This document shows positions 1 to 46,553 of a DNA stretch of 46,553 nucleotides, one piece after another. A program made the translations under genes and the position numbers. The notes below the pieces were generated by a model. It did not search any database, was not told the origin of the DNA, and saw only the letters and a list, made by a program, of their open reading frames with translations. Location of the stretch: the IMG/VR virus record IMGVR_UViG_3300044802_000020. One strand, written 5' to 3'. Source of the stretch: a virus. Position 1 is the stretch's first letter; every line of letters starts with the position of its first letter.

Positions 1-127
1 CGGCGAAGATGGATCTCTGGGTGCGCCGAGCCCTGCACCGTCAAGGCCGCAACGTCGCCGGCAGCGTTGATTTCCACGCGCCCCGAGCTGGTCTCGTCGA
101 AGGTTACCGCCCAAGCCACATCCGCCG
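1..127. repeat. Terminal direct repeat, left copy, identical to 46427..46553. Probably an assembly overlap of a circular or circularly permuted genome.
   Basis: Bases 1-127 (cggcgaagatggatctctgg...ccacatccgccg) read identically at 46427-46553. Confidence 0.97.
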
Positions 128-575
128 CTGTTTCGATGAACAGTTGCGGCTGCGCTTCACCCGCCACGTGCAGCGTAGCCGCGCCCCCGCGTAGGAAAAT
201 CTGCGCCTGGGAGGAACCTTGTATGACCAGATCCGGAGCGCCGCGCGTGACGGTCACGGTAGGAGCTGCATTCTCGTCGACGATGATGGACGGTACCGCC
301 CCGTCGTCTACGTCGATGTCGACGGACGCACGACACGAACCCGCGAGATGCACCGTCGGCGCGCCCGGCCCAAGAATCTTGACCACCGTCGCGGCGTCGC
401 CGTCGATGGTCAGGTTCGGCGAGCCGCGCACCACGAACGTCTGCGCCCCGCCCGTGCAGTGAAGGTCGCACGTGAGCGGGATCGTCAAGCTTATCGGGCC
501 TGAAATCTCTGGCGTTACGCCGTCGCTGATGGCTTCCAGCACCGCCGAGGTCGAGCTGCAAATACGTCCTGCCAT
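1..575 (-). CDS. Beta-solenoid-like repeat protein, N-terminal part. It belongs to a 302-aa ORF that wraps the contig junction and continues at 46553..46093.
   Basis: Manual translation from the ATG at 575-573 (AAGGGGG Shine-Dalgarno about 7 nt upstream) gives MAGRICSSTSAVLEAISDGVTPEISGPISLTIPL... It stays open to base 1 and is in frame with the tracked ORF 46093..46545 (575-119=456, divisible by 3). Confidence 0.8.
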   Translation of the reverse strand, partial: MAGRICSSTSAVLEAISDGVTPEISGPISLTIPLTCDLHCTGGAQTFVVRGSPNLTIDGDAATVVKILGPGAPTVHLAGSCRASVDIDVDDGAVPSIIVDENAAPTVTVTRGAPDLVIQGSSQAQIFLRGGAATLHVAGEAQPQLFIETAADVAWAVTFDETSSGRVEINAAGDVAALTVQGSAHPEIHLR

Positions 576-586
576 GATGTGCCCCC

Positions 587-2536
587 TTAGTAGGAAATGG
601 CCATCTGCCCAAATAAGTTGAGAATTGCGTTGATTTTCGAGTTGTCGCCCCCTTGAGGTACGAACACCACGCCTATGAACGTGCCGGCCGTCAATGCGAG
701 ACCGATGTTCTTAAGAGAAGTCTGCATCATGTTCCCGGATGTCGTTGTATTGTTGATGCCCGTTTGCGCAGCATTTAGGGGTATATTCAGTGTTTCAAGA
801 AGAGTCGTTGTATTCCAATTGATCTGGTAGATGTCGATTCGGATGTAGGGGTTCGACACGGGACCGCCTTGCGAAATTGCAGCACCCGCCATGCCGATAT
901 AGAAGCTGTTCAAAGTGCCATCTTTCGGCACCAAGTAGGGGCTTATTGTCTTGGCGTTCTGCAATCCGTTAGTAGCCCAGTCGGGAATGCCTGCGACGTT
1001 CGTATCATTCGGCCCGAGACAGAGGCCCACGGGATTGCCACCTGAAATTTGCTGGGGTAGGTACAGCGGTACGAAGACGTTGACGGGCTCGGCCGGCGTA
1101 GGCGTGGGAATTCCAACCACTGTTGGCGTGGCTGCGACGGACACGCACGCGGTGGTTCCTGTAGCTGTCCCGGTCGACGTTCCCGTGACGGTCCCCGTTC
1201 CAGTCACGGACCACGTATTCGTCACGGTGCCGGTAGCCGTGAGATTCGCGGTGAGCGTCTTGGTGGCGGTCATCGTCCATGTACGCGTACCCACCCCTGT
1301 AGATGTGCGCGTGTAGGTCGCCGTAACCGTCGCTGTGTAGGTCGTCGATTGTGAGGCGGTCGCCGTGCTCGACGCAGTGACGGTGCCGGTCTTCGTGAAC
1401 GTGGCCGAGCCGAACTCGCCGCCCGTCCCCGTGCCGGTCATCGTCCAGGTCTGCGTAGTCGTGAAAGACACCGTCGCGGTTTGCGTCGCGGACGTGGTCG
1501 CCGTGACCGTGGCCGAAGCACTGCCTGTGCTTGTTACTGTCGAAGTCATGGTCGCCGTACCTGTGTAGCTCGACGTGGACCCCGCGGCCGAAGCCGTGTT
1601 GGTTGCCGAGCCCGTAACGGTGCCGCTCGCCGTCGCCGTATCCGTGTAGGTGTTGGTGACGGTCGTCTTCATCGCGTTACCCTGCTCGGCGCAGATCTGC
1701 GCGGCCGTCGAGACGTATCCTGGCGCCGAGATGGTGAGCGTATTGCTGACCGTTCCACTCGTCGCTGTGGTCGTGCTGGTTCCCGACGTTACGGCAAGGC
1801 CCGGCGCTACTTGCAAAGTGTCGAGCGAGTGTCGCGCGTCCGAAAGCCTGGAATCCGTCGTGTTCACAGCCCCCGCAACGTCCGTCACCGTGTGCGTATG
1901 CGTGTACGTGTACGTCACCGTGAGCGTGGCCGTGTCCGTACTGGCGACGCTGGTGGCCGTAGCCGTGCCGGTGCTCGTTCCCGTCCCCGTGACTTTCGTC
2001 CAAACGCCGCCGATGGCCGAGAAACTGCCGACCGCCTGCGAAGTTGGGGTGTAGGTCCACGTGTCGGTTGACGCCACGGCGGTGACTGTCGCGGTCCCGG
2101 TCGCCGTCCCGGTGCCTGTGACCTTCGTCAACGTGCCTCCGGTGAGAACCATCGTCCCCGTGGCTGTGTTCGTAGAGACGCTGGTAGGCAACCATCCAAC
2201 GTCGATCTTGCCATTCGTACCAGACGCGGGGCACGAGTTCGCGGCGGGCGTCACCTGGCAAATGTCCGTGCTCGCGAGCGTGGCCGTCTGGCACGAGTTC
2301 ACATTCCAAACCGAGCCCGACGGGAGCGTGACCCGAGCCCCGCGGGCAGCCTCCGAACACACAAGCTGGTCAGTGTCCGCGTCCAGCTCGGCGGCTGTAC
2401 TTGTGCCGTGCGTCCCGTTGGTTCCTTCAACCGTCGTTAGAGCCCGTGCTTGAGGAGGAAGAAGCAGGGTCGCGAACAGCTCAAGTCCGCACAGGAAGGC
2501 GAAGAAGCGCCGTGGGATCAAGGTCTTCATGGTCAT
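587..2536 (-). CDS. Thr-rich repeat protein with a signal-peptide-like N-terminus; putative distal fibre or adhesin.
   Basis: 649-aa ORF. The N-terminus MTMKTLIPRRFFAFLCGLELFATLLLPPQARA has basic, hydrophobic and AXA segments. About 430 aa are T/G/A/S-rich T-x-T arrays, followed by a ~170-aa non-repetitive C-terminal domain. The start overlaps the upstream stop (ATGA). Confidence 0.8.
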   Translation of the reverse strand: MTMKTLIPRRFFAFLCGLELFATLLLPPQARALTTVEGTNGTHGTSTAAELDADTDQLVCSEAARGARVTLPSGSVWNVNSCQTATLASTDICQVTPAANSCPASGTNGKIDVGWLPTSVSTNTATGTMVLTGGTLTKVTGTGTATGTATVTAVASTDTWTYTPTSQAVGSFSAIGGVWTKVTGTGTSTGTATATSVASTDTATLTVTYTYTHTHTVTDVAGAVNTTDSRLSDARHSLDTLQVAPGLAVTSGTSTTTATSGTVSNTLTISAPGYVSTAAQICAEQGNAMKTTVTNTYTDTATASGTVTGSATNTASAAGSTSSYTGTATMTSTVTSTGSASATVTATTSATQTATVSFTTTQTWTMTGTGTGGEFGSATFTKTGTVTASSTATASQSTTYTATVTATYTRTSTGVGTRTWTMTATKTLTANLTATGTVTNTWSVTGTGTVTGTSTGTATGTTACVSVAATPTVVGIPTPTPAEPVNVFVPLYLPQQISGGNPVGLCLGPNDTNVAGIPDWATNGLQNAKTISPYLVPKDGTLNSFYIGMAGAAISQGGPVSNPYIRIDIYQINWNTTTLLETLNIPLNAAQTGINNTTTSGNMMQTSLKNIGLALTAGTFIGVVFVPQGGDNSKINAILNLFGQMAISY

Positions 2537-3381
2537 GGGCTCGGCTTTCCTCCGTCTAGGTACACGCTCACAGTGGGGTCGATGTAGAGATTGAACACCG
2601 CAGGACTTGCTTTGAAGCGGAAATTCTCGCGCGCGTTGGCGTCGGTGCCTGCACTATAGGGCAGGCAAAACGCAAGATTGGCCACGCCCACCGAAGCACC
2701 GTTGATGATGTCGATAGGTGCGGTGTGCGTAGCCCCGAACACGACAAGCCTGTGGTCGTCGCCGCGCGCGAAACTGGTATCTGCGGAGGTGTATTTCTTA
2801 ATGCCGTTGATCGTCCCTCCGCTGATCATCGTCAATTCACTTGTGTGGTACGGCGACAATGTGACAATGCCCGAACCGTCAATCGTGGCTGGTCCAATAC
2901 CCCTATGCTGAATGACAGGCCAGATCTTCGACCACGCCGTGTCGCTAGAACCTGTCTTGATCCAAAGGCCGATGGGATCCCCGTCGTTTTCGTCGAATTG
3001 GACGCAAAAAGACGGGCCGCCATCCTCGTATTTCATAGGCGCGGTCAAGCCGATGATCGAAGGGTCTGCACTGATGAAGAACCACAGCGGGCGGCTGGTG
3101 GCGGTGACAGCCTTCAAGTCGAGTTGTGGGACGGGTACGGGGTCCGTGGTCCATTGAATGCCGATAGTCACCGAACCGTCGGAAGAAACCGGCCCTATGT
3201 GCTTGAGCAACGCTTGCCACGACGCCGTGGTCATGGCGTCGGCAAGCGGAATTACTTTCGAGAGTGGAAGGCACGGCGGATTGGGAGGGGTGAGTCCCGC
3301 CAAGAAAGCAGTCTTAGCCGCTTCCTTGGCGGTGTCCGCCTCGGTAAAAAGTTCTGTCGCCGTGTCCTTCCACGCGGTCAT
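2533..3381 (-). CDS. Hypothetical protein of the tail-fibre cluster.
   Basis: 282-aa ORF with ordinary composition, tightly packed between fibre-cluster genes. It abuts the upstream stop and is ATGA-coupled to the downstream start. Confidence 0.8.
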   Translation of the reverse strand: MTAWKDTATELFTEADTAKEAAKTAFLAGLTPPNPPCLPLSKVIPLADAMTTASWQALLKHIGPVSSDGSVTIGIQWTTDPVPVPQLDLKAVTATSRPLWFFISADPSIIGLTAPMKYEDGGPSFCVQFDENDGDPIGLWIKTGSSDTAWSKIWPVIQHRGIGPATIDGSGIVTLSPYHTSELTMISGGTINGIKKYTSADTSFARGDDHRLVVFGATHTAPIDIINGASVGVANLAFCLPYSAGTDANARENFRFKASPAVFNLYIDPTVSVYLDGGKPSP

Positions 3382-4134
3382 TTACGGCACGTAGTTGTAG
3401 CCTTCGATACGCACCCAGCACGCACCGCCAGTGCTCGACGCTTCCTGAATGTTGAGCGTCCAGTCGGACCCCGCCGTACCGGAGCCCGCATCGTAGAAGA
3501 GCGAATTCGTACCGGCCGGCGTGATGGTTACGTGATACTGCCCCGTAGGGAACATCGCAGCGCCACCTGTGACCGTGATGTTCACCGTGTTGTGGCCAGC
3601 TCCCAACGTCACCTTGAACGCCAGCACCGTGACGCGTTCCGTACTTCCAGACACCCAGCCTCCGACAAAGTACCGAAAGAGGCTCGAAATCACCCCATCG
3701 TAGTTCGCGGAGACTCCAGGAATGGCTGTAAAGCTCATTTTGTTGGACAGCAGCACCGCCATGTCGCTTTCATTGTGGCCGCACTTGAGCCACTTGGTGG
3801 AGTCCGTACCGGGCTCCGTTGTGGTCAAGTTGCCCCCCGACACGTTCTGCCACATGTACGTCGAGTGCTGCGTTCGTGCACTTGGCGGGTACGTCTCGGA
3901 AGCGTGCCATTCGGCAACACCACGCTGGCGCAAGTAACGCGTCACCCGGTGCACGATGTTTTCGATCCAGTTGAATCGTTGGCGAGGGGGCGGCGTAGAC
4001 GTCGCCGGCCAGCCGTGGGCAACGTCGCCACCGCTGGGATCGATGTCCCCCGGATTGCTGCCGCCGTCGCCCACAGTACCGCTTTCGCACCACGTAGCCG
4101 TTTCAGGAGTGGGAAGAGTTTCAACCAGGGACAT
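3382..4134 (-). CDS. Tail fibre protein.
   Basis: 250 aa. The segment PPRQRFNWIENIVHRVTRYLRQRGVAEW resembles the conserved N-terminal motif of myovirus tail fibres. The gene sits directly downstream of the baseplate genes. Confidence 0.75.
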   Translation of the reverse strand: MSLVETLPTPETATWCESGTVGDGGSNPGDIDPSGGDVAHGWPATSTPPPRQRFNWIENIVHRVTRYLRQRGVAEWHASETYPPSARTQHSTYMWQNVSGGNLTTTEPGTDSTKWLKCGHNESDMAVLLSNKMSFTAIPGVSANYDGVISSLFRYFVGGWVSGSTERVTVLAFKVTLGAGHNTVNITVTGGAAMFPTGQYHVTITPAGTNSLFYDAGSGTAGSDWTLNIQEASSTGGACWVRIEGYNYVP

Positions 4135-4891
4135 TGCGATTCATCCTTTCCGCGAAAACCCCGCCGCGCGACGGGAACGCTCGATCTCCATAGGGCGCAC
4201 CGTGCGCCGTATCCGCGTCTGCAAAATTGAACACGGGCAGGGCATCGTCCCACACCGTAAACCCGACACTGACACCCATCGGGATAGGTAGCAGGTCGGC
4301 AAAGGCTAGCGCCACCTGGCGCAGCATCGGGATCGTACCAATGCCGATCTCGATTACCATTCCGCCTTCGCGAATCCAAATGGGGTAGCTGCCTGTGTGA
4401 TCGTAGAAGATCAAGAACAGCACGTCGTAAATCTTCTCAACCCAAGCCTTTTCCCCGGTGAGTTTCGTTGTGTTCTTGATCATCTTCGCTTTGAGTGCGA
4501 AGCGATACACACCATCGCCCATCAAGGCAGGATCTTCGAGGGAGTCGCCACGATTGTAGAACACGCCGCCTGCTACGCTGTTAGCGCGGTCCCCGTACGG
4601 CTTCGCATGAAGGAAGGTGATACCGCCCTCCTCGCGGAACCCGAAGAATTCTTTCGGCGCCGCACCTAGGATCTTGCGACGGAGCACTACGATTTCGCCG
4701 ATGACGTCTAGGTTCACCCCTCCGATGTTGTCCACATCCATCAACGAATCGAGGGTGCGTATTCCGTCTTTCACTTCGGCGAACTCAGAAGCGAGCGCTT
4801 CGATATACGCACAGAAGCGATCCGAGCTGCGCAAACTTCCTGCTATGCGCGCGAGTGCGCGAGCTTCAATATCAACGTCGTCGGCACTCAT
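4121..4891 (-). CDS. Baseplate / fibre-attachment protein, in the position of P2 gpI or Mu gp48.
   Basis: 256 aa from the internal ATG (MSADDVDIEARALARIAG...), which forms an ATGA overlap with the stop of the J-like gene. The 73 tracked upstream codons are Arg-rich and lie inside that gene. Confidence 0.7.
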   Translation of the reverse strand: MSADDVDIEARALARIAGSLRSSDRFCAYIEALASEFAEVKDGIRTLDSLMDVDNIGGVNLDVIGEIVVLRRKILGAAPKEFFGFREEGGITFLHAKPYGDRANSVAGGVFYNRGDSLEDPALMGDGVYRFALKAKMIKNTTKLTGEKAWVEKIYDVLFLIFYDHTGSYPIWIREGGMVIEIGIGTIPMLRQVALAFADLLPIPMGVSVGFTVWDDALPVFNFADADTAHGAPYGDRAFPSRGGVFAERMNRNVPG

Positions 4892-6111
4892 ACAGCCACT
4901 ATCGTGATGTTTCCCACGGACAGCGAGGGGTATTGATTGTACGGTGTCGAGAGATCTTGTACCGCAAGCGCGCCACCGTGGGCGGCAAGGCGTACCTGCT
5001 CGACCTTGATCGCGTGCGCTTGCGTGGTGCCCGAGACGGCCGTCAAAATGACGGGCACGAACTCCCCCCAAGGAACGTCGTCGCCTGGCATGAACGTCGT
5101 ATTTGCCCAAGCGGCGACCGCCTGCTTCAACGTCGGACCATCGGTCGACTCGACGAACCCCTGTGCAGGCACCGCTTTGTACCTGATTTCCAGATCGTAC
5201 AAGTACGGATCGGCCACGTCATAGGCAATGTCGTGCCACTGGCCTTGCGAATCCGCCACCTGCACATGAGTGCTTCCGACGTTGTCGCACGCGGGGTTCT
5301 TGTACAGCCAAATGGTCTGTGCGATTTTGTCCACGCCGCCGATTGTAACTGCGTTGCGCACCACAACCCGGCAAGAATGGGCCGGCAACGCCAAATCCCC
5401 CGGTTTGATGTCGACGGCGATAGCCTTCGGATTGACGAAAACGCTCACGTCTCCGATGCCGTCGAGGTCGGCCAGCGCCGCATACAAGCTGTCCAGCATA
5501 CCTTGCCCTGGCTTGGCTACCGAGCGCATGCGCCGCTGGCGGAACTTCTGCGGTGTCTCGGCCACAGTCCCCGTCGTGCTGTCGGTGTAGAAGGCCACGT
5601 CGAGCCAGCCGTACACATCCACCACTTTCTTGGCGGTATTCGTCTGCTTCGTCTGCACCGTGCCGTACGTCGTGGCCGTGCACGACACAAGGTAGTCGTG
5701 GGCGTCGCCTACCGACGGACCAACCGCAACCCCTGTCTCGTAAACCACACCACCTTCTTCGTCGAGAATTTGCGTCCCCGCGGGTAGCGTTTCGCCCGTC
5801 TTCACGTGGACTAGGCACGTAGTTGTCGCCTTCTGGCCCAGCTTGACCGAGATGCCCGACAACGGACCGAGGCGCCACAGGGCTTCGCCGGTCGCATTGT
5901 TGGGGTCGACCACTGCGTAGACATTCTCGGCCACTTGGTAGAGGGTGTCTTCAATCTCGGCGACGATGCCCGCAATCTGGCCATCGGGAGTAGTCCCATC
6001 GAGCACGGCATCCGCCCCGAGAACCTCGGGCGCCTTGAGCTTGGCGACGAGATTGGACAGCAGAATATCGAGGCGCTCGCGCGCAAACCCAGTGTCTGTT
6101 ACTCCGCTCAT
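4888..6111 (-). CDS. Baseplate J-like protein (P2 gpJ / Mu gp47 type).
   Basis: 407 aa. Its size, its position between the W-like and I-like genes, and its overall sequence character fit baseplate wedge J proteins. Confidence 0.75.
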   Translation of the reverse strand: MSGVTDTGFARERLDILLSNLVAKLKAPEVLGADAVLDGTTPDGQIAGIVAEIEDTLYQVAENVYAVVDPNNATGEALWRLGPLSGISVKLGQKATTTCLVHVKTGETLPAGTQILDEEGGVVYETGVAVGPSVGDAHDYLVSCTATTYGTVQTKQTNTAKKVVDVYGWLDVAFYTDSTTGTVAETPQKFRQRRMRSVAKPGQGMLDSLYAALADLDGIGDVSVFVNPKAIAVDIKPGDLALPAHSCRVVVRNAVTIGGVDKIAQTIWLYKNPACDNVGSTHVQVADSQGQWHDIAYDVADPYLYDLEIRYKAVPAQGFVESTDGPTLKQAVAAWANTTFMPGDDVPWGEFVPVILTAVSGTTQAHAIKVEQVRLAAHGGALAVQDLSTPYNQYPSLSVGNITIVAV

Positions 6112-11870: not shown

Positions 11871-13343
11871 CTAAGGGCTGAAAATCAGCTTGAGGTTGGC
11901 CTTCTGGATGGCCCCCGAACCCGTCGCCAGCGCCGTGATGGGCGGCGAAACGCGAGTGTTGCGGTCGGCCTGGCTCATGCTGGAGATGGGCTCGGCGTAC
12001 ACGTAGAAGCCGTCTTTCAAGTATCCGCCCGGCTTCACCGTGCCCACACCCGTAACGGTCCTCGGCCAGTACCCCGGCGCCAGAAGTCCGTTGTTGACGG
12101 CCTTGCGAAGTGCGGTCTCGAAAGCCGTCACCAGCAAAGCCACGTCTTCGTCAGTCTGCGCGAGTCGTCCCATGGCGGTCATGGCCGCGTAGACCTGCGT
12201 CTTGATCTCCAGGTCGAGCCAGGACAGCCCGAACACCTGATCGATGTACGTACCGTCGCCCATGGTGCCGTACGTGAAAATGGGGCTGTTCGCGCCGAAC
12301 GAAGCCACGACGTTGCAGTTCTTCGCGCGCAGACCATCGTAGATGCTTTGGTCGATGTTCTCGCCCGACACGCCACCGATGGCCTTACCCCACAGGGTGA
12401 TGACCGAGCGATATTGCGTGTAGTCCACGACCGCAATACGCGCGAGCGCGCCCACGCCTGCGTTGGGCGTATCCGTCGAGTACGTGACGAAGGTGTACTT
12501 GTTCGACTTCCGCTTGGTGTACCCCGCGATGTCCGTATCGCCGCTGGTCGGCGTAGCGTACGCAGCCGGGCTGTTGGTCGTCGCCGCCATGGGGCGCTTG
12601 TTCGCGAGCGCCCAATCCGAGGCGTTCTGCAAGTCGGTCAGATCCGCATCGCTCGCCATGGCGAAAGAGAACCAAGACGAGGTGAAGACCTTCGCCGCCG
12701 TCAAAGAATCGTCGACGACGGTTTCCGCCGCGATCCCCACCGCGCGACGTGCGCCTTCTTCGACGGTCAGGCCGAGAAGCGCGGCCGTCGTGGTGTCGGT
12801 GCCGGCCGTCGTGGCGAAACTGACTTGACTCGAAGTCCCTGTGGTGGGGGAGCTGACCAGGAAGAACCCGTCCGCCGTGTACGTGCACGTGGTGCTTGCG
12901 AGCCCCGCGGCCAACTGCGACTGAATCGCAGTGGCCACGGCCGCGAAGTCGGCACAGCCCGAGAGGTCGAGCGCCGTCACGTGGATCGTGGTGGTGTCCA
13001 CGGTGACATCGAACGCGCCCGCCGTGATGGCCTTCAAGGCGAGCAACGCCCCGTGCGCACCGCCCAGCAGCACACCGGCCTGTGCCGTCGAGAATCGCCG
13101 CGCGATGTACAGCCCGCTAAGCGATGGGTTCTGCGCGAAGGCAACCATCGCCGCTTTGTACTCGGGGTCGGACGCCGAGAATCGCGAAGCAAGCGTGTCA
13201 GAGGTGAAGTATTTCACCTTTTCGTAGACCGCCAGCTTGGCGGACTTTCCGAAGATGCACACCCCTTGCAAGCTCGGCGTGGCAGGCGGAAGCTGCGGAA
13301 CCTCGATGGTCAAACCGATTACGTTGTTGATGTCGAGACTCAT
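11871..13343 (-). CDS. Contractile tail sheath protein.
   Basis: 490 aa. Its size and its position upstream of the tube gene fit the sheath proteins that co-occur with this capsid/portal gene set. Confidence 0.75.
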   Translation of the reverse strand: MSLDINNVIGLTIEVPQLPPATPSLQGVCIFGKSAKLAVYEKVKYFTSDTLASRFSASDPEYKAAMVAFAQNPSLSGLYIARRFSTAQAGVLLGGAHGALLALKAITAGAFDVTVDTTTIHVTALDLSGCADFAAVATAIQSQLAAGLASTTCTYTADGFFLVSSPTTGTSSQVSFATTAGTDTTTAALLGLTVEEGARRAVGIAAETVVDDSLTAAKVFTSSWFSFAMASDADLTDLQNASDWALANKRPMAATTNSPAAYATPTSGDTDIAGYTKRKSNKYTFVTYSTDTPNAGVGALARIAVVDYTQYRSVITLWGKAIGGVSGENIDQSIYDGLRAKNCNVVASFGANSPIFTYGTMGDGTYIDQVFGLSWLDLEIKTQVYAAMTAMGRLAQTDEDVALLVTAFETALRKAVNNGLLAPGYWPRTVTGVGTVKPGGYLKDGFYVYAEPISSMSQADRNTRVSPPITALATGSGAIQKANLKLIFSP

Positions 13344-13972
13344 GGTATGGGCACCTCGATGGCTGTTTGGTGGACGTCCCCGCCCGGTTCCGCAACTATA
13401 AGCTGCGCTTGCAAGGCGGCCAAGAATTGAACCTTCGTGGTCTCGCGGGCCACGATGCCGAAGTCAAGATCTACCTGCCCGCGCGACTCGAAAAGCGAAT
13501 CGTTCAAGGCCGTAAGGTCGCGCGCCGCGCTCTTCTGCCCCAAGAACGCGATGCCGTTCTGCTGCAAAAGCATACGCACCGACGGGAGCCAGAAGCGCGA
13601 AGGTAGCCGGTTGGCTTGGTTGAAGCCCCACTGGCTTTGCTCCATGATGCCGACCGAATCGACGAACGCGCCTTCGTCGGCCGACGTGGGCGCCCGACGC
13701 GCTCGATAGAACTGCACCGACGCCGTGAATTCTTGATACGTGTCGAGGTAGTAATCCATCTCGACCGCGTCGACAGCCGCCCCGGAAACATCGCCGACTT
13801 TCTCGGGCGTGGCTTTGTTCCCTTGCGCGTAGATGAAAACCGTAGCGAACTCGTCGCCCGAATCCCCGATAGGCAACGTCTGATTCGCCGGACGTACCGT
13901 GTTGACAGCCATGCCGGCGGCTTCACGGACGATGCCACAAAGATTGTTGCTCAACAAATCTTGGAAGTTCAC
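13340..13972 (-). CDS. Virion neck / tail-completion protein, assigned from position only.
   Basis: 210 aa from a GTG at 13972 that forms a GTGA overlap with the upstream stop (VNFQDLLSNN...). An alternative start at MAVNTV is possible. The upstream 60 tracked codons are Arg-rich. Confidence 0.6.
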   Translation of the reverse strand: MNFQDLLSNNLCGIVREAAGMAVNTVRPANQTLPIGDSGDEFATVFIYAQGNKATPEKVGDVSGAAVDAVEMDYYLDTYQEFTASVQFYRARRAPTSADEGAFVDSVGIMEQSQWGFNQANRLPSRFWLPSVRMLLQQNGIAFLGQKSAARDLTALNDSLFESRGQVDLDFGIVARETTKVQFLAALQAQLIVAEPGGDVHQTAIEVPIP

Positions 13973-14361: not shown

Positions 14362-14864
14362 TAGTCGTGCCCCCAGGTTACGGCCTGCTCCATGTTGCCT
14401 GTATCCTTGAGCGGTTGATCGCCCTTCTTCCCGTCGCGCGTTTTCGCTGCGATGGTTGCGTCGGCGTTCGGCTCGGCCCACGTCTTGCTGGTCGCGATGG
14501 CGCGCTTAATTTCCCCGGCAGCCATCGCTCCGAGCTGGCCGATTGCCTGCTCGTAAGACATGCGCCCTTTGAGCGTCAAAATCAGGTTGATCCGATTGAG
14601 CCGCGAAAACTTCATTTTCCCTTGGGTGATCCCGTGGCGCATGAACGCGCGCTCCGGAGTGTGCACGGTGCCGTCGGCGTTGTGCGTGCCCAGCTCATTC
14701 CACGCGGCGACTTGCGCCACCGTCAAAAAGCCGTCGTCTTCGGTCTCGGGATGCGACTTCCCCTTGATGAAGCCGGCCTTGACGGTCCCGCGCATGGTCT
14801 TGAAGTGCTGCGCGAGTGCTGCCAAGCCACCGTTGTGTACGGTGTGCTCGACGTGCCCGCTCAC
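14361..14864 (-). CDS. Head-tail adaptor / tail-completion protein (HK97 gp10-like position).
   Basis: 167 aa from the GTG at 14864 (VSGHVEHTVHNGGLAALAQHF...), with a GTGA overlap on the upstream stop. Confidence 0.6.
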   Translation of the reverse strand: MSGHVEHTVHNGGLAALAQHFKTMRGTVKAGFIKGKSHPETEDDGFLTVAQVAAWNELGTHNADGTVHTPERAFMRHGITQGKMKFSRLNRINLILTLKGRMSYEQAIGQLGAMAAGEIKRAIATSKTWAEPNADATIAAKTRDGKKGDQPLKDTGNMEQAVTWGHD

Positions 14865-15319
14865 TGCGGTTCCCCTGTGGGTGGAATGTCTGCCGCTGGG
14901 AAGACCAAAGGATCGGCGCTGCACAAACCCGTGCCGCTGTCGTCGAGCCACTTTGCGCCCGACGCGAGCACGCCGCGCCCCACCTGCCCCCTAAGCCAAC
15001 AAAGACGCTGTCCATAGGTCGTCGACATCCAAGGATCTTCGGATTGCTTCTGTAGCATCGCCGCGTTCCGCGTGATGTTGAGCTTCCCCGCGCCCTTGGA
15101 AACAACGTCGCGCGCGAAGGTCGCCGAGGGTGCGGCCGTCGCGCGCGCTTGTTCTTCTGCTTCAATCGCGCAGTAATGGGCGGCGTAGAGCCCTTGGGCC
15201 ATGTCCGCGTACTCCTCGTAAGCCTCCCCAATGAAAAGGAGGGCTTCCGAAAGGTACGTCTCGATATTCGCGTTAGTGGCGAACTGCGGATACCGAGCTT
15301 TGAACGTGGCCGAGTTCAT
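14861..15319 (-). CDS. Head-tail connector protein (DUF4054-like).
   Basis: 152 aa. The N-terminus MNSATFKARYPQFATNANIETYLSEA matches the F-x-x-x-(Y/F)P-x-F opening typical of DUF4054 connector proteins. The gene follows the capsid gene. Confidence 0.65.
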   Translation of the reverse strand: MNSATFKARYPQFATNANIETYLSEALLFIGEAYEEYADMAQGLYAAHYCAIEAEEQARATAAPSATFARDVVSKGAGKLNITRNAAMLQKQSEDPWMSTTYGQRLCWLRGQVGRGVLASGAKWLDDSGTGLCSADPLVFPAADIPPTGEPQ

Positions 15320-15334
15320 CGCCGCCCGTCGCGC

Positions 15335-16507
15335 TTAGTGAGCCGAGCCGCCCGTGCCCAGCACCTTGTCCATGTAGAGCATGGACTTGGGGTAGCGCAG
15401 CTCATAGCCGCCGCAGCGCTGCTCGCCCGGCACATTCACGCGCAGGTTGACGAGCTGTGGAGCCTGGAAACGAAGGGGCATGGGTACGTGGAACACGGCC
15501 ATGTCTTCGTTGTTCACCCAGAACACCGCTCGGCTGTTGCTGCCCGAGACCGCGCCGCCCGTAGTGGCTGCGCCTGCCGTGTCGAGACCCCAGATCGGAC
15601 GAATCCGAACGTTGACCTCCATGGTCGCTTGGGAAATGTTGTTCTTCACCAAGAAGGTGAAGATCGTTGTATCGGAGTAGGTCGACCGAGCCGTCGAAAC
15701 GATCCGGTTCCACGCCTGTACCGGAACGCCGATGTCCGTCGCCACGTAGTTGAACCCCATGGCGGTGAAGACGTAGTTCAGGCCGAAGTTGAGATCGTAC
15801 AGGATCGTGTCGGCCGTGGCCGCGTCCCAGTTCCCCGTGAGGGAAGTTCCGTTGGTGCTGCCCACGGCGATCTGCGGACAGGTCGACTGATTGAGGAACC
15901 CCTTGATGTTCTTCGAGGCGATGCCGAAGAGCGCGGCCTTGTTGAGCGCGCGTTCCGCGGCCTGCGTCGCCTTGACCAGCCGGCGCTCATTGAGGGGGCG
16001 TCGGAGGTAGGCGGTCTGTCGCAGCTCTTGGAGGGTGTAGAAGTACCCGATGCGGCCGTGCGCGACCGAGTGGTTCTCGTCATCGTACTGGACATCGACG
16101 TACGGGAAATCGTCTCCCTTGTCACTGCCCCAGTCCGCTTCGCCGACACCGTCTTCCTTCTCGAAACGGATGTTGTCGGCCCACTCGCCCGCCTCGCCCG
16201 TGACCGTCATCAACTGGCGGTACTGCATGGGGAGGTACAGACGCTCACGGACCTTTGCCTCCGTGTAAGTCGTCTGCCCGATGACGAACGAAAGAGCTTC
16301 GTTCGCGTCGCGAGCGGCGCCGGGGACGCGCGCGTATTCGTGCCCGTCGCCAATGATCTTGGCCATGTCGGGCGCCCACGCGGCGTGAAGCTCGCGCAAG
16401 CGCTGCTCGCTCACGAGAACTTCCTTGAACAGGTCCATGCCATCCGCGACCGAGATCAAGCGTCGGCCCGGCTTGCCGGGGATTTCTTTTCCGATATTGA
16501 ATTCCAT
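15335..16507 (-). CDS. Major capsid protein (HK97-fold, DUF2184-like).
   Basis: 390 aa, located downstream of the protease/scaffold and decoration genes. Its size and sequence character fit the capsid family that pairs with DUF1073 portals. Confidence 0.8.
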   Translation of the reverse strand: MEFNIGKEIPGKPGRRLISVADGMDLFKEVLVSEQRLRELHAAWAPDMAKIIGDGHEYARVPGAARDANEALSFVIGQTTYTEAKVRERLYLPMQYRQLMTVTGEAGEWADNIRFEKEDGVGEADWGSDKGDDFPYVDVQYDDENHSVAHGRIGYFYTLQELRQTAYLRRPLNERRLVKATQAAERALNKAALFGIASKNIKGFLNQSTCPQIAVGSTNGTSLTGNWDAATADTILYDLNFGLNYVFTAMGFNYVATDIGVPVQAWNRIVSTARSTYSDTTIFTFLVKNNISQATMEVNVRIRPIWGLDTAGAATTGGAVSGSNSRAVFWVNNEDMAVFHVPMPLRFQAPQLVNLRVNVPGEQRCGGYELRYPKSMLYMDKVLGTGGSAH

Positions 16508-16553
16508 CGTCCTTTGTCCTTTGCTGGAGGTTGTTTGCTAAGCCCTGTCCCGG

Positions 16554-17066
16554 TTAGGACGTGGTCTTCATGGAGCGGCCCGCGCGCAACACGACCTTGG
16601 CGAGTTGCCCCGCCGTTGCCGCACCTTCGTAGGTGCAAGTGCCGGGCACCGCGTACCGCGTGGAACCGTTGGCCGCGCCACCGCTGGCCGCGCCCCACGT
16701 GACGCCACCCGTGCCGCCGTCGACGAGAATCAGCAGAGCGTCGCCGTCCGCCGCGTTCTCGCCAGCGACAATCAGGATCGGCCCCTCTTCTACGACGGAA
16801 GCGGAGTCGTACTGATTGTACTTCGCGACGCCTCCCAAAATGGGGTGCATCGGGTTCTTCTCGGCGATGCCGACGAACGCCGTGTGCGAGCCGTCGAAAG
16901 GCACGCATCCGCCGCTGGCGCCTTGGGCGAGAGGTCCACCCCAGGCGGCGCCTGCCGCATCTTCCACGACTCGCGAGCGACGCACGGCAAGCGCGCCGTC
17001 GATGACTTGGCCGGCATAGCCCCGGTCGAACTCGAAGCTGCCGACGCTTCCTAGATCTACTGACAT
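16554..17066 (-). CDS. Putative capsid decoration / cement protein (DUF2190-like).
   Basis: 170-aa Gly/Ala-rich ORF immediately upstream of the major capsid gene. Confidence 0.6.
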   Translation of the reverse strand: MSVDLGSVGSFEFDRGYAGQVIDGALAVRRSRVVEDAAGAAWGGPLAQGASGGCVPFDGSHTAFVGIAEKNPMHPILGGVAKYNQYDSASVVEEGPILIVAGENAADGDALLILVDGGTGGVTWGAASGGAANGSTRYAVPGTCTYEGAATAGQLAKVVLRAGRSMKTTS

Positions 17067-17105
17067 GTGATTTCCTTTCGTTCGGGTTTCGGTTTCGGCC
17101 TTGGG

Positions 17106-24173: not shown

Positions 24174-24842
24174 CTACGCGAACGGCCCAAACACCCGCGC
24201 GCGGTGAGGGTCCGAGCACCAAAACGAAGAGCCCCGGCGCTGAGCTGTGCTCCCTAACGCGTCCTGCACCGCTTGCAGCACTCCAGGAAACGAGGTCGTG
24301 AAGTCATGCCCGGCGATAACCCCCGTCGGCTTCAACTTGGGCAGAAACGCACGAAGAAGCTCGACGGTGTCTTGGTAGCCGTGCTGGGCGTCGATGAACA
24401 CGAAATCAAGGCTCGCGTCCGCGTACGTCGCCGCGCGCTCTTGCCCCTTCGCCGACACGAGCTGCACGTACTTTTCCAGCCCTGCATGAAAGACCAGATC
24501 CCGCACAAGGTTGTCGTGCGGCCTGCCTGCGAGAATCGACGCGCGAAGCCCCGCGGGCACGTCCACGGCACCCGGCACGGGAAGCGCCATGATTTCATCG
24601 TACGTACGCAAGAGCCCGGACGCATCCCAGCCGAACACGTCGAAAGCGTCGAAAGCGATCTTCTTCCCCGACGCCTGGATCGCTTCGGCCATGTACAGCG
24701 TCGACTTGCCGAACATCACGCCGACTTCGACGAACGCCGCACCTTCGGCCGGCGCACGCGAGACCGCCTCGGAGTAGAGATCCGCGAAGTCGAAATACCC
24801 CGGCACGTTCTCCCAAGAAATCGCCAAGCCTCGAAGGTTCAT
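24174..24842 (-). CDS. Class I SAM-dependent methyltransferase (Methyltransf_24 / CmcI-like).
   Basis: 222 aa. FVEVGVMFGKSTLYMAE is a motif I-like segment, and LDFVFIDAQHGYQDTVELLRAFLPKLKPTGVIAGHDF fits the family. Confidence 0.75.
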   Translation of the reverse strand: MNLRGLAISWENVPGYFDFADLYSEAVSRAPAEGAAFVEVGVMFGKSTLYMAEAIQASGKKIAFDAFDVFGWDASGLLRTYDEIMALPVPGAVDVPAGLRASILAGRPHDNLVRDLVFHAGLEKYVQLVSAKGQERAATYADASLDFVFIDAQHGYQDTVELLRAFLPKLKPTGVIAGHDFTTSFPGVLQAVQDALGSTAQRRGSSFWCSDPHRARVFGPFA

Positions 24843-40355: not shown

Positions 40356-40663
40356 CCGAAGCACGCTATCAAGCCAAGTTTTTGAAACGTGCTCGGCTCG
40401 AAGGTTGGGTGGCCTGGAAGATCCAAGCGCCAGGCACCAATGGAGTGCCCGACACGCTGCTGTTAGTGCCGACTGCCAAGGGGCATGGGCGCGCGGTGTT
40501 CGTCGAGCTGAAAGCGGCGGGTGAAGAACCGACGGACCTTCAAGAATACTACCTCAACCTTCTTCGTCGATGCGGCTTCGTGGCGTTCTGGGCGGACACA
40601 ACAGCCGACATCGAAGACCTCATCAAGTACATTCGCGCCCAGCTACGAAAACGCAAGCGATGA
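40352..40663 (+). CDS. VRR-NUC domain nuclease.
   Basis: 103 aa from the GTG at 40352, with a GTGA overlap. It contains GVPDTLLLVP...AVFVELKAAGEEPTDLQEYYLNLLRRCG, a PD...E-x-K...Q pattern. Confidence 0.7.
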   Translation: MTEARYQAKFLKRARLEGWVAWKIQAPGTNGVPDTLLLVPTAKGHGRAVFVELKAAGEEPTDLQEYYLNLLRRCGFVAFWADTTADIEDLIKYIRAQLRKRKR

Positions 40664-42135
40664 AATTCATCCCCCGAGAGTACCAAAAGGCAGGCATCCG
40701 CTTCCTTGTTTCCCGTCGCGAGGCTGCGCTACTGCTTAAGCCTGGACGTGGGAAGACGGCCGCGACGCTGGCCGCGTTCCAATTGCTCGCGCGGACCTCG
40801 AAGATGCGGGCTCTCGTGCTCGCCCCTCTGCGCGTCTGTTACGACGTCTGGAGCGCGAGCGGCGAGATCGGGCGCTGGGACCAATTCAAGGGATTGCGCG
40901 TGGCGCTACTACACGGGCCGAAGAAGGAAGAAGAGTTCCGCAAGAAAGCGGACATCTACGTCATCAACTACGAAGGTCTCGACTGGTTATGTGCGCCCCG
41001 TGATGCTCTCAAGGCGTACGGGCTGCGCAACGTCTCGCGACTAGACGAGCTTCTCGGACTGTCGTCCGGGGGGCTCGTGCTCGTGTGCGACGAGCTGTCC
41101 AAGTTCAAGCATACGAAGACGAAGCGCTTCAAGGCGCTTCGTCCGTACCTGCCACGCTTCGCGTTCCGCTGGGGGCTCACGGGCTCGCCGGCTGCGAACA
41201 GTCTAGAAAACCTGTTCGGTGAGTGCTACGTGCTCGACTTAGGCAAGCGCCTTGGGCGGTACATTACGCACTTCCGACAGAACTACTTCATCCCCTGTGG
41301 GTTCCAGGGCAAGGAATGGCGCCCGGCGCCCGGAGCGGAAGAGCGTATCTATGCGGCCATCAAGGATCTGGCGCTGGTCATCGACACGCCCGACTCGGGG
41401 GAACCGGAACTCGTCACCAACAATGTGTGGGTTGACTTGCCACCGAAAGCCCGGAAGTTTTACGACGTGCTCGAAGAGGAGATGATTGCCGAGATCGACG
41501 GCAACGTCGTTGTAGCGGGGTCCGCGGGCGTCGTCTCGGGCAAATGTCGTCAGATTGCGAGCGGTGGAATATACACCCATGGTCTGACGCAACTTCCGAA
41601 GGGGCGCGGGATTCAAGGCGTGCCCGAAGTTCAACCTGTGCACGATGCGAAGACGGAAGCCCTGGTCGACCTCGTCGACGAGCTGCAAGGACAGCCCCTT
41701 ATGGTGGGCTTTGAGTTCAAACACGACCGCGCCCGCATCCGCAAGGCGCTTGGCAACGTGCCCAGCATAGACGGAGACTGCAACCCCGCGCAAGCATCCG
41801 CCATCATCGCCGACTGGAACGCGAGCAAAACACCTGTGCTTCTCATTCACCCCCAGGCGGGGGGTCACGGGCTCAATCTGCAAGGCTGTTCGTGTGCGAA
41901 CTTCTGCTTCTACACATGTCCGTGGGACCGCGAGCTGTACGATCAAGTCATCGCGCGCGTGTGCCGGCAGGGGTCGAAGGCCGAAGTTGTCGTAGTCCAT
42001 CGCCTTCTGGCACGCGACACGGTCGACGAAGCCGTGGTGCGCGCGCTCGGAGCGAAGGGGAAGACCGAAGCGGCGCTCTTCGCAGCGCTCAAAGAGTACA
42101 GCCAGGAAAGGAAGGCCAAGAAATGCGCTCGGTAG
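40660..42135 (+). CDS. SNF2-family (SF2) helicase/translocase.
   Basis: 491 aa from the ATG at 40660, with an ATGA overlap. Motif I is LLLKPGRGKT, motif II is LVCDELSKF, and the C-terminal helicase domain contains HPQAGGHGLNLQ. Confidence 0.8.
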   Translation: MKFIPREYQKAGIRFLVSRREAALLLKPGRGKTAATLAAFQLLARTSKMRALVLAPLRVCYDVWSASGEIGRWDQFKGLRVALLHGPKKEEEFRKKADIYVINYEGLDWLCAPRDALKAYGLRNVSRLDELLGLSSGGLVLVCDELSKFKHTKTKRFKALRPYLPRFAFRWGLTGSPAANSLENLFGECYVLDLGKRLGRYITHFRQNYFIPCGFQGKEWRPAPGAEERIYAAIKDLALVIDTPDSGEPELVTNNVWVDLPPKARKFYDVLEEEMIAEIDGNVVVAGSAGVVSGKCRQIASGGIYTHGLTQLPKGRGIQGVPEVQPVHDAKTEALVDLVDELQGQPLMVGFEFKHDRARIRKALGNVPSIDGDCNPAQASAIIADWNASKTPVLLIHPQAGGHGLNLQGCSCANFCFYTCPWDRELYDQVIARVCRQGSKAEVVVVHRLLARDTVDEAVVRALGAKGKTEAALFAALKEYSQERKAKKCAR

Positions 42136-42482
42136 ATCTCCAGAAAATCACGTTGCGAATGAATGGCGAAGGTCGCACGTGCCTCTACTTCGGCGCCTCA
42201 AACGCAACCATTCGTATGCAGTCCGGACCTCTCATCGTCGAGACGTTGAGCCAGGCCGATTTGCTGCGACAATTCCCCGTCGATGTACTAGCGGACGCCG
42301 AGACACGCACGCGACGCGCGCGCCTGGACTCTGCCGGGCATCAATACGTGCTGCACGCGGCATTGGCGGGAGCTTCTGCCATGGCCGTGAATCTGCTTTA
42401 CGACATCCACACCCCCGATCTGACACTGCTTCGACAAGTTGAAGAGCGCATCGCTCCCAAGCCTGCAAAGGATCCACTATGA
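42123..42482 (+). CDS. Hypothetical protein.
   Basis: 119 aa from the ATG at 42123, which overlaps the SNF2 gene end by 13 nt. Confidence 0.6.
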   Translation: MRSVDLQKITLRMNGEGRTCLYFGASNATIRMQSGPLIVETLSQADLLRQFPVDVLADAETRTRRARLDSAGHQYVLHAALAGASAMAVNLLYDIHTPDLTLLRQVEERIAPKPAKDPL

Positions 42483-44160: not shown

Positions 44161-44676
44161 ATGGCTCGCTGGACAAAGCTTCACGACCTCGCGAGAGCCT
44201 ACGCGCGGAGCACGTGCGACGCCAAGAAGGTGTGGAAGTTCGACCTGTCCTTCAAGCAAAGGATGCGCCAAATGTCGGTCGAATCCGCGTGCTGGGGCTC
44301 GCTTTACGACATCGGGCTACGGGAGCAAGGCGACCACATGAAAGAGCTTGTACGCTACTGCCCCGTGCGCGGCCAAGACGAGAACGCCGAAATCAACTTA
44401 GGCGAGGTGAAAGCTTCTGCGCTTCAGCCGCAACCATCGACATGTAGGCATCCCACGGCCACCGAGGGCCAGGGTCGACGTGCGAGCCCGACTGCGGGTA
44501 AGCCCGCGTCACATCCCAGTGCCCACAGATCCCCCGTCGAGCCTTCAAAAGATCCGAAGGTCCGAGCTTCTCGATTGGGATCTGCCAAGCCTGGCAAAGC
44601 TGCGCCACGAGCCGCGACGAAAGCCGCAGCACCGCCTGCCCGGCCGAAGTCGCCCACTCGGTCGCCTCGGCGATGA
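44161..44676 (+). CDS. Hypothetical protein whose C-terminal 94 codons run antisense through the amidase gene.
   Basis: 171 aa from the ATG at 44161. The first ~80 codons have high GC3 and ordinary composition. No in-frame stop occurs before 44674-44676. The tail is P/A/S/K/R-rich. Confidence 0.5.
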   Translation: MARWTKLHDLARAYARSTCDAKKVWKFDLSFKQRMRQMSVESACWGSLYDIGLREQGDHMKELVRYCPVRGQDENAEINLGEVKASALQPQPSTCRHPTATEGQGRRASPTAGKPASHPSAHRSPVEPSKDPKVRASRLGSAKPGKAAPRAATKAAAPPARPKSPTRSPRR

Positions 44677-45016
44677 TGTCCCCGTCTTCGGTGCGCACTT
44701 CCTTGGTGCGCCCGGCGTGCTCGATGCCTATTCCGCGGGCGTTGGCCTTGGGCGCGTGCCAGGCCACGTCTGCTTCGCGTACGTACTGGTAGACGGCCTG
44801 GGGGTCCACGCCGAAGTGCGCCGACTTGGGCGCGTAGCGTGGCTTCCCTGTGGCCGGATCGACCGACACGTCGAGGTCGCGGAAGACCTCCCCGAGCCTG
44901 CGAGCCATGCCCGGCTGACATGGCAGCTCCATCGTGTGGATCACAATGAGGTCGACCCGCTCACGGTTCGCGTGGTGGAAGCACCGCGCTTGAATGAAGT
45001 TCTGCGTCGCGCTCAT
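44393..45016 (-). CDS. N-acetylmuramoyl-L-alanine amidase endolysin (Amidase_2 / PGRP / T7-lysozyme type).
   Basis: 207 aa from the ATG at 45016, with an ATGA overlap. It contains LIVIHTME, HFGVD, AWHAPKANARGIGIEHAG and GHWDVT...VDPGPRWPWDAY. Confidence 0.85.
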   Translation of the reverse strand: MSATQNFIQARCFHHANRERVDLIVIHTMELPCQPGMARRLGEVFRDLDVSVDPATGKPRYAPKSAHFGVDPQAVYQYVREADVAWHAPKANARGIGIEHAGRTKEVRTEDGDIIAEATEWATSAGQAVLRLSSRLVAQLCQAWQIPIEKLGPSDLLKARRGICGHWDVTRAYPQSGSHVDPGPRWPWDAYMSMVAAEAQKLSPRLS

Positions 45017-46092: not shown

Positions 46093-46553
46093 TCAAACCG
46101 GAGGCTCGAAGACAGGAGGTGACGTTCCTTCGATACGTTGAAGCAAGCAAGTTCCATTGACCGTCGGAGTCTCCCCGGAAATCTGTACCGCCACGCTTCG
46201 ATCTGGCGTGACGGTCACACTTCCCGAGACAAGAAGCTGCGAATTGTGGTGCGCTTCGACCGCGAACGGTACGCTGGCGCTCCCCGTGATGGACAAATTC
46301 GATTGGTTGTAGGTGGAGAGCGTAGAAGCGGCATCGTCGGCCGCTGTGATGCTGGACGCGGTGTCGTCCCACGCGTAGCACATAGCCGTCGCGCTCCCCG
46401 CGAAGTCCACCGTCGCGCGCGAAGAACGGCGAAGATGGATCTCTGGGTGCGCCGAGCCCTGCACCGTCAAGGCCGCAACGTCGCCGGCAGCGTTGATTTC
46501 CACGCGCCCCGAGCTGGTCTCGTCGAAGGTTACCGCCCAAGCCACATCCGCCG
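46093..46553 (-). CDS. Beta-solenoid-like repeat protein, C-terminal part of the junction-spanning 302-aa ORF (see 1..575).
   Basis: The tracked ORF 46093..46545 begins at an internal GTG. The frame stays open to the window edge and continues, through the 127-bp repeat, to the ATG at 575. Confidence 0.8.
   Translation of the reverse strand, partial: ADVAWAVTFDETSSGRVEINAAGDVAALTVQGSAHPEIHLRRSSRATVDFAGSATAMCYAWDDTASSITAADDAASTLSTYNQSNLSITGSASVPFAVEAHHNSQLLVSGSVTVTPDRSVAVQISGETPTVNGTCLLQRIEGTSPPVFEPPV
46427..46553. repeat. Terminal direct repeat, right copy, identical to 1..127.
   Basis: Exact 127-nt identity read off both ends. Confidence 0.97.

Follow-up and report, generated by a model that had tools for sequence, protein, structure and literature searches.

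Tail fibers are the main determinants of host range in phages, and the prevailing assumption is that both their folding and their assembly take place in the cytoplasm. Export signals are found on other products of genes in or next to tail-fiber clusters, such as Llp of T5, Cor of phi80, T1, and N15, and Lom of lambda. In Bdellovibrio bacteriovorus, the mosaic adhesive trimer (MAT) fibers combine a signal peptide, a conserved N-terminal domain of ~100–130 aa without a relative in the Protein Data Bank (PDB), a trimeric phage-like shaft, and swappable tips (PMC10769870, Caulton et al., 2024). By architecture, these fibers are the closest analog of the protein analyzed here, the 649-aa product of an open reading frame (ORF) at 587..2536 on the minus strand of IMG/VR virus record IMGVR_UViG_3300044802_000020, a stretch of 46,553 nucleotides (nt) referred to below as the window.

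The protein consists of four parts: a leader, a cysteine-containing N-terminal domain (N-domain), a threonine-rich shaft, and a globular C-terminal tip. It is proposed to be made as a secretory protein, to form the distal, receptor-binding half of a tail fiber built from two pieces, and to join the virion once the holin has triggered or the cell has lysed, a reading to which we would give an even chance. Fibers and receptor-binding proteins are a known kind of protein, and the evidence supports the view that what is new is the secretory route. It also supports the existence of an undescribed family of at least 74 protein clusters, predicted to bear leaders, in the tail-fiber position of phages. 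An earlier note on this DNA had pointed to a Thr-rich ORF with a leader and alternating Thr residues, a description that is borne out by the composition and spacing statistics given below.

The Leader Peptide Across the Family

The leader comprises residues 1–32 (MTMKTLIPRRFFAFLCGLELFATLLLPPQARA; 2441..2536, minus strand), opening with MTMKTLIPRRFF and ending in PPQARA|L. Its n-region is basic (K4, R9, and R10), with no acidic residue ahead of the core, which extends from F11 to L26, reaches a best 10-residue Kyte-Doolittle (KD) mean of 2.02, and has Glu19 inside it. The c-region, P27-P28-Q-A30-R-A32|L33, carries small residues at positions −3 and −1 (AWA in the counterpart from IMG/VR contig L007, which encodes the closest full-length homolog at 74% identity), and A32|L33 is accordingly predicted as the Sec cleavage site for signal peptidase I. 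An AlphaFold2 (AF2) model of the N-terminal 200 residues places a helix at residues 9–25. The lipobox L-x-[GA]-C is absent from the cleavage region, and the idea of a lipoprotein was rejected on that ground. Likewise, a dual start producing a leaderless isoform was rejected because no in-frame ATG, GTG, or TTG occurs between codons 7 and 58; the ATG itself overlaps the stop codon of the upstream ORF 2533..3381 (ATGA) and is preceded, about 12 nt upstream, by GGAGGA.

Sec leaders were scored with a crude rule that calls for a net positive n-region, a 10-residue core with a KD mean of ≥1.9 and free of K, R, and D, and small residues at −3 and −1. The leader of the target protein conforms to this rule, as do 6.8% of 558 background ORFs. 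For the family at large, a profile of the N-domain only (A2), which begins after the putative cleavage site and holds no leader residues, was built after a first search, the proteins P0001–P0008 sharing roughly their first 120 residues. A word-indexed profile search with the N-domain returned one protein only, and exhaustive scoring was needed: A2, scored on 1.84 billion representative proteins, matched 119 protein clusters at E ≤ 1e-3. The N-domain starts ≤45 aa from the N-terminus in 74 of the 119, and 71 of these 74 conform to the Sec rule, as against the 6.8% of background ORFs; the other three either have short N-termini resembling truncated gene calls or carry an Asp in a core that is typical in other respects.

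The leaders of the family cannot be aligned with each other, yet they keep the basic n-region, the hydrophobic core, and the small-x-small motif, typically AWA, AFA, or ASA, which ends the leader immediately before the first position of the profile. Such an n/h/c pattern with a cleavage motif at a fixed distance, combined with free sequence drift, is characteristic of signal peptides rather than structural interfaces. Full-length N-domains are all found in leader-bearing proteins with the exception of P0064, whose listed sequence starts with V, so that either its start codon is an alternative one or the gene call is doubtful; the leaderless A2 matches hold only repeats of the second half of the N-domain. 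The earlier suggestion of an export signal, an unexpected feature on a fiber-cluster protein, thus withstood a search with a profile devoid of leader residues, and among homologs with an N-terminal domain, none was found to lack the N-terminal hydrophobic segment, a lack that the earlier note had named as an argument against export. The N-terminus therefore appears to behave as a genuine export signal, as these comparisons support, and the protein is very probably exported and its leader cleaved.

Cysteine Pairs and the N-Terminal Domain

The N-domain (residues 33–127; 2156..2440, minus strand) contains the cysteine pairs C60/C82 and C93/C102, and its second half is a phage-fiber motif, TDI..TP.A..P.SGTNGKIDVGWLPTSV. 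Of 46 aligned N-domains, 29 have C60 and C82 together, the other 17 have neither, and no domain has only one of the two (Fisher 6e-13). C93 is partnered at position 102 in 16 cases, while the other 11 show, on reading the alignment, a Cys two residues downstream (IPC). The number of cysteines is even in 42 of the 46 domains, those without the first pair often showing a new pair upstream, and from the L007 protein (74% identity) C93 and C102 have both been lost. Gain and loss in pairs points to disulfides and hence to an oxidizing compartment, which again agrees with export as the earlier note had it, and the covariation supports an N-domain that would be stabilized by two disulfides. AF2 models residues 50–125 with a predicted local distance difference test (pLDDT) score of 84–92, and Foldseek comparison of this model with the PDB gave no fold match, nothing scoring better than E = 2.7.

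Members of the family sit in phage loci, with all nine homologs that were looked up lying in or beside tail, baseplate, or lysis modules. The tails concerned are of different kinds: the N-domain is found in the phage of P0004 (Phage_sheath_1/T4_gp19), in the E217/Pam3-like L003 and L011, and in the siphovirus of P0019 (Phage_tube_2). In the window, in L001, in L012, and on the contig of P0081, the family gene stands 2–5 genes upstream of the endolysin. A profile scan of IMG/VR with the N-domain found one contig, a scan of the JGI metagenomes found no match, and a scan of species-representative genomes with one conserved A2 peptide pattern confirmed one locus, on a 3-kb contig of a metagenome-assembled genome (MAG). 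This contig (L006, CAYOME010000028.1, 3078 bp) is binned in a Candidatus Saccharibacteria MAG and encodes a protein ending in domain X (described below) followed by the N-domain match; it is probably a mis-binned phage fragment.

Two further observations concern relatives and neighbors of the N-domain. Its second half (..TP.A..IPVA.TDGKID..WLP..) recurs up to 15 times in long, leaderless, fiber-like proteins, among them P0017 (1802 aa), P0043, P0047, and P0106, and the motif ..IPVAGTDxKIDxxWLP is repeated in leaderless fiber-like proteins of phages; judged by these sequences, this half appears to be a general fiber repeat. In addition, a protein of ~160 aa with a signal-peptide-like leader of its own (for example, MKNLAALTLVIVLSALTVAPQSARA|T) is encoded directly upstream of the leader-bearing fiber in L001 (4289–4765) and L003 (9513–10004, equivalent to L004 7076–7567), its stop codon overlapping or abutting the fiber start. 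The copies are 43–47% identical, the protein is absent from the window, and it may act in the periplasm as a partner or chaperone.

A Fiber Divided Between Two Genes

The arrangement of the locus becomes intelligible by comparison with L014, a gap-free IMG/VR contig of 47.9 kb that is syntenic with the window on both flanks and encodes a single, leaderless fiber of 554 aa. Residues 1–145 of this fiber are 55% identical to the N-terminus of a 282-aa protein encoded immediately upstream of the target (E 2e-46), and residues 387–551 are 49% identical to the tip of the target (E 1e-48). The single fiber of L014 thus joins the N-terminus of the one protein to the tip of the other, indicating that the fiber of the window is split over two genes. 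L008, in which the N-terminus of the 282-aa protein is matched at 74% identity, resembles the L014 arrangement, broken there by a scaffold gap. Where these sister phages have a collagen-like shaft, the target has its Thr-rich one.

The 282-aa protein (2533..3381, minus strand) is regarded as the proximal fiber piece, with an anchor at residues 1–155 and, at residues 140–282 (2536..2964), a C-terminal domain of about 140 aa here called domain X. Directly upstream of leader-bearing fibers, domain X recurs in L007 (87%) and in L003/L004 (48%), with weaker matches upstream of the fibers in L011 (E 1.6e-4), L012 (E 1e-3), and L006 (E 4e-3), and it is recognized in L002 because the protein there resembles that of L003. 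L008 and L014, neither of which has a leader-bearing fiber, lack it. Domain X is proposed as the docking site of the N-domain because it occurs with leader-bearing fibers in this way and because the start codon of the target overlaps the stop codon of the 282-aa gene.

The linker and tip make up residues 464–649 (590..1147, minus strand), with the core of the tip at about 487–649 (window 590..1078). AF2 predicts an all-β structure at low confidence (mean pLDDT 54). Foldseek places this model next to TNF-family ligands, BclA-like ExsFA, and phage tail-tip proteins, and, in a viral library, next to collagen-repeat and minor tail proteins; these neighbors identify it as a C1q/TNF-like jelly-roll of the sort that forms fiber heads. 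The same tip ends leaderless collagen-like fibers in L009, L014, and probably L008, and in L009 a single frame runs from collagen G-X-Y repeats into the tip. Further homologs (P0129–P0134) come from metagenomes only. A fiber-type receptor-binding role for the tip is probable. An autotransporter, with the C-terminal ..MAISY as a β-signal, was also entertained and rejected, since the jelly-roll tip is shared with cytoplasmic fibers, the C-terminus of the L007 protein reads ..TFP, and those of other family members are unrelated. The idea of a decoy is weakened by the tip being present once in the genome of the window. Runs of 100 N (scaffold gaps) interrupt the collagen-like G-X-Y regions at 9881–9980 in L008 and at 9776–9875 in L009, where they break the frame in the deposited scaffolds.

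Proteins of this type are easily missed in public data. The target matched nothing in Pfam, PHROGs, NCBIfam, or the PDB sequences, nor any GenBank phage at the DNA or the protein level; the 282-aa protein, the domain X proteins, the 160-aa leader protein, and gp68 of Bdellovibrio phage phi1422 (see below) were likewise without a match in Pfam, PHROGs, or NCBIfam. Public gene calls give the target as only 228 aa (P0128) and cut its homologs on other contigs to 126–169 aa, so that the family has been overlooked and its size and annotation underestimated. The shortened calls include P0129–P0134, L008 10001–10510, and L009 10001–10483, in all of which the Thr-rich or collagen-like shaft is left uncalled, and long spurious ORFs overlie the target on the plus strand, for example at 951..1316, 1481..2071, and 2061..2453.

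The Threonine-Rich Shaft

The shaft spans residues 128–463 (1148..2155, minus strand). At about 340 aa it is shorter than the ~430-residue Thr region given in the earlier note, in which the 95-aa cysteine domain ahead of it and the ~165-aa globular tip behind it had not been set apart. Threonine accounts for 24% of the whole protein and 35.6% of residues 121–463, where its spacing is far from random: T-x-T pairs at spacing 2 number 86 against 42.9 ± 4.2 in shuffled sequences (z = +10.3), and adjacent TT pairs are five-fold depleted (9 observed, 43 shuffled; z = −8.1). Recent repeat expansion at the DNA level was rejected, as the gene contains no DNA tandem repeat; a single internal duplication of 43 residues is visible at the protein level (TKVTGTGTxTGTAT..SVASTDT at residues 137 and 180). 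Despite the strong period-2 Thr pattern, the shaft shows no fixed-length tandem repeat at the DNA level and just that one duplication in the protein, and so does not fit the T-x-T β-solenoid class of antifreeze and ice-binding proteins.

Relative to L007, the shaft retains 78.7% amino acid and 70.3% nucleotide identity, and the 143 synonymous codon differences against 69 replacements indicate that it is under purifying selection. The motif YTRTxTGxGTRTWT, read from the sequences, is common to P0001, P0002, and P0008. Modeled as a monomer by AF2, the shaft has low confidence. Strict period 2, conserved motifs, and purifying selection together speak for a folded β structure. Threonine richness is a family trait, the leader-bearing members having 16.4% Thr against 10.6% in leaderless relatives (p = 1e-12), and the same holds for the T-x-T excess.

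The earlier note had also offered the Thr array as a mucin-like region and as a substrate of the glycosyltransferase-like protein of the phage (42479..44158), and this we consider very improbable. The genome does encode a PF03407 nucleotide-sugar transferase, in L001 a gene of the glycosyltransferase family 2 (GT2) lies two genes upstream of a family member, and the high Thr content of the family would suit such a substrate. Glycosylation in the cytoplasm before Sec export has precedents in AIDA-I/Aah and HMW1/HMW1C. The transferase gene, however, stands beside an SNF2 helicase gene in the replication module, as it does in L011, with a homolog in L007, and its product carries no leader; the gene tables around P0004, P0006, P0008, P0019, P0033, and P0081 hold no glycosyltransferase; and the features that indicate a folded β structure argue against a loose mucin-like chain, as does the position of the Thr region, which takes the place of the collagen-like shaft of sister phages. 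Glycosylation is in any case compatible with the reading of the protein as an exported distal fiber piece, and the two are not exclusive.

The transferase, of ~550 aa, is encoded at 42479–44158 (plus strand) in the window together with SNF2 at 40570–42135 (plus strand), and at 15412–17070 with 17198–18685 in L011, where a methyltransferase lies nearby; the window has a Methyltransf_24 gene at 24174..24842. The L007 homolog (14700–16328) is 65% identical to the window protein, and that of L011 45%. This setting may point to modification of DNA or of another non-fiber target.

Genomic Setting

An exact direct repeat of 127 bp at both ends of the window (1–127 and 46427–46553) indicates a circular assembly, and hence a complete genome of 46,426 bp. 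Its genes are those of a tailed phage, with a terminase, a portal, a major capsid protein, a DUF3383/E217-type sheath, a Dit-like protein, Baseplate_J, and DUF2612/Wedge1, alongside a family-A DNA polymerase, a primase-helicase, an SNF2 helicase, and an Amidase_2 endolysin. By its large terminase, the closest cultured relative is phi1422 (44.6% identity), which has a G+C content of 44% against about 60% in the window phage. The sheath shares 30–35% identity with its counterparts in myoviruses of Burkholderia, Bordetella, Ralstonia, and Acinetobacter, and the DNA of the window has no match among GenBank phages.

The target is the fourth gene after Baseplate_J on the minus strand, following the baseplate wedge gene DUF2612/Phage_Wedge1 (4121..5110, identified by Pfam), a 250-aa protein with a tail-fiber N-terminal domain (3382..4134), and the 282-aa protein. 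The 250-aa protein, which adjoins the wedge gene and is recognized by PHROG tail-fiber and Pfam matches, has homologs in L003, L007, L008, and L011. Downstream on the same strand are a 302-aa ORF, a 151-aa ORF, a 230-aa membrane protein, and then the endolysin. The 302-aa ORF, in the same operon, runs from 575 to 1 on the minus strand (1..575) and continues across the junction to 46426..46093; its sequence is repetitive and β-rich, and a homolog follows the fiber in L007 and L014.

The 230-aa protein (45013–45705, minus strand), a multi-pass membrane protein located between the fiber genes and the Amidase_2 endolysin, has several membrane helices near its N-terminus, a stretch resembling a lipobox (..IIGALGGC..), and six Cys in its C-terminal domain. 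Homologs were located by tblastn in L007 (about 13205–13825, 96%) and L002 (19014–19772, 31%). A role in lysis, as a holin-like or spanin-like protein, is conceivable, and these features hint that the host is diderm and forms disulfides in its periplasm.

Possible Routes to the Virion

Under the proposed mechanism, the precursor would be exported by Sec late in infection and cleaved after A32, and the exported protein would then be oxidized by the Dsb system of the host and trimerize in the periplasm. Holin lesions or lysis would merge the periplasm with the cytoplasm, at which point the N-domain could dock on domain X, the C-terminus of the virion-bound 282-aa protein, and so provide the particle with its receptor-binding tip. 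Holin lesions are large enough for folded proteins to pass, and in T4 the addition of fibers is a late step that also works in vitro. Attachment to the virion after such mixing of compartments is given slightly under an even chance. That two-compartment virion assembly is a route common to about 75 clusters of uncultured phages, which among those looked up include myoviruses and a siphovirus, is put forward more tentatively, as a possibility that may well fail.

Several considerations weigh against this proposal. To our knowledge, no tailed phage has been shown to assemble a virion protein from the periplasm. Full-text literature searches found no report of signal-peptide-bearing or exported tail fibers in tailed phages, and the papers on phages CSP1 and phi1422 contained nothing relevant to exported fibers. 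The rule used to recognize Sec leaders is crude; the leader of the target is the least hydrophobic in the family (KD 2.02), with Glu19 in its core; and family members are kin, so their counts overstate the number of independent events. The conservation of the leader between the window and L007 is that of a recombination block and not of demonstrable selection: the 40 nt upstream and the 96-nt leader segment (window 2441–2576, L007 9865–10000) are 98–100% identical in nucleotides, the remainder of the gene is about 67–70% identical, and a sharp boundary falls at the junction of leader and N-domain. Synteny is what suggests that the N-domain may dock on domain X, which is matched weakly in L011, L012, and L006 and was not found in the examined part of L001. 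The diderm envelope is itself a reading of the Amidase_2 endolysin and of the multi-pass membrane protein with its Cys-rich tail, and AF2 confidence is modest for the N-domain and low for the tip.

The protein might also be exported and never reach the virion, serving as a free or envelope-bound receptor-binding protein that masks receptors on infected cells or lysis debris, as Llp and Cor do, or alters adhesion at the host surface, as the secreted MAT fibers of Bdellovibrio do; this, the main alternative, we regard as unlikely. In its favor, the leader and the Cys pairs indicate an extracytoplasmic location as such, the second leader-bearing protein of ~160 aa just upstream in L001 and L003 suggests an exported module, and the retention of the N-domain across phages with unrelated tails would fit a host-derived partner better than a baseplate one. 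Llp, Cor, and Lom exemplify exported phage proteins whose genes adjoin receptor-binding genes. Moreover, phi1422, the nearest cultured relative by terminase, has a leader on gp68 at the same position, and the MAT fibers have the same architecture (PMC10769870). The genome, on the other hand, has no virion-borne copy of the tip whose receptor would need masking, and the same tip ends an ordinary fiber in L014. Superinfection exclusion, which is needed early, is poorly served by a gene with an ATGA overlap in a late structural cluster, domain X co-occurs with the family, and a shaft of >300 aa under purifying selection exceeds what a masking protein would need.

Two other readings turn on the leader itself. 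That the protein is an ordinary cytoplasmic fiber, its hydrophobic helix buried in the joint between baseplate and fiber or inserted in the host membrane during infection, would be in keeping with a gene in the tail-fiber cluster, with motifs shared with leaderless phage fibers, with the break that Glu19 makes in the hydrophobic core, and with the fact that every characterized tailed-phage fiber known to us is assembled in the cytoplasm. Such another role for the hydrophobic N-terminus, raised in the earlier note, is improbable given that the leader sequences are not conserved and only their physicochemical pattern is kept, with its cleavage motif at a fixed distance over 74 clusters, that the cysteines covary in pairs, and that full-length N-domains, P0064 apart, all occur in leader-bearing proteins. 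Export by Tat, by contrast, would let the fiber fold and perhaps trimerize in the cytoplasm before transport. It is suggested by a Z-R-R-x-φ-φ motif in the target and L007 (P8-R-R-F-F-A13), by the weakly hydrophobic core with its Glu, by the length of the leader (32 aa), and by Arg31 in the c-region. Nonetheless, this motif is found in just one of the 74 family leaders, most of which are short Sec leaders of the MK(R/H) type, Arg31 is replaced by Trp in L007, and the paired cysteines suggest oxidation, and with it folding, after export. The Tat-like character noted earlier is therefore quite doubtful, and the sequences favor Sec for the target.

A conserved family of leader-bearing, Cys-paired fibers challenges the assumption of cytoplasmic assembly. 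If the protein is on the virion, as in the proposal of a distal fiber piece that joins the particle late, a step of morphogenesis would depend on host Sec, signal peptidase, Dsb, and the timing of lysis, which would open new routes of host resistance and constrain the heterologous production and engineering of such phages. If it is off the virion, the secretion of fiber-like receptor-binding proteins would serve phages in some way that has yet to be described. In both cases, the leader, the N-domain, and domain X on the partner constitute a defined module.

Comparison With Known Systems

Among phage proteins with export signals, Llp, Cor, and Lom resemble the target in the position of their genes. 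Those proteins, however, block or modify receptors and are small, being either lipoproteins or outer-membrane barrels, whereas the target is built as a fiber of 649 aa, has no lipobox, and bears the only fiber tip of its genome. Autotransporter adhesins end in a C-terminal outer-membrane β-barrel, where the target has a jelly-roll of ~165 aa.

The tip family is shared with collagen-like phage fibers that have C1q/TNF-like heads (L009, L014, and probably L008), and its predicted fold also recalls the exosporium proteins BclA and ExsFA, in that it matches the TNF family, ExsFA, and viral collagen-repeat proteins. The collagen-like fibers lack a leader and a Cys-paired N-domain, while the target is set apart by its period-2 Thr shaft and its division into two polypeptides. 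This division has counterparts in two-piece or branched fibers held together non-covalently (T4 gp34–gp37, G7C gp63.1–gp66, and the CBA120 tailspikes), in which, as in the window, proximal and distal pieces are encoded by adjacent genes, and in which the distal piece, like the target with its proposed docking domain, pairs a conserved N-terminal module for docking with a tip that varies. The distal pieces of T4, G7C, and CBA120 differ from it in having no signal peptide and in being assembled in the cytoplasm.

The structural module of phi1422 (L010, NC_019525.1) follows the same order as that of the window. Right after the tail fiber gp67, gp68 (614 aa, 40429–42273) carries a Sec-like leader, MKFMIAFIIALFSVTMATAQ, in the same position as the target, with which it has no detectable sequence similarity. 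In the same genome, gp75 (44298–44810) and gp01 (1–828) also bear leaders.

Closest in architecture are the MAT fibers, which, like the target family, proceed from a signal peptide through an N-domain and a fiber to variable tips. P0001, P0002, P0006–P0008, and P0027 carry, as read from their sequences, capping-loop motifs of the xVGIGTTxP type listed for MATs. MATs are displayed on the cells of a predator that encodes them on its chromosome, whereas the target family belongs to phage tail modules, and the target differs from them in its Thr shaft and C1q/TNF-like tip and in having no S74 chaperone-protease domain. If it exists, the two-compartment route may also have given rise to secreted fiber adhesins such as the MATs of Bdellovibrio, or share an origin with them.

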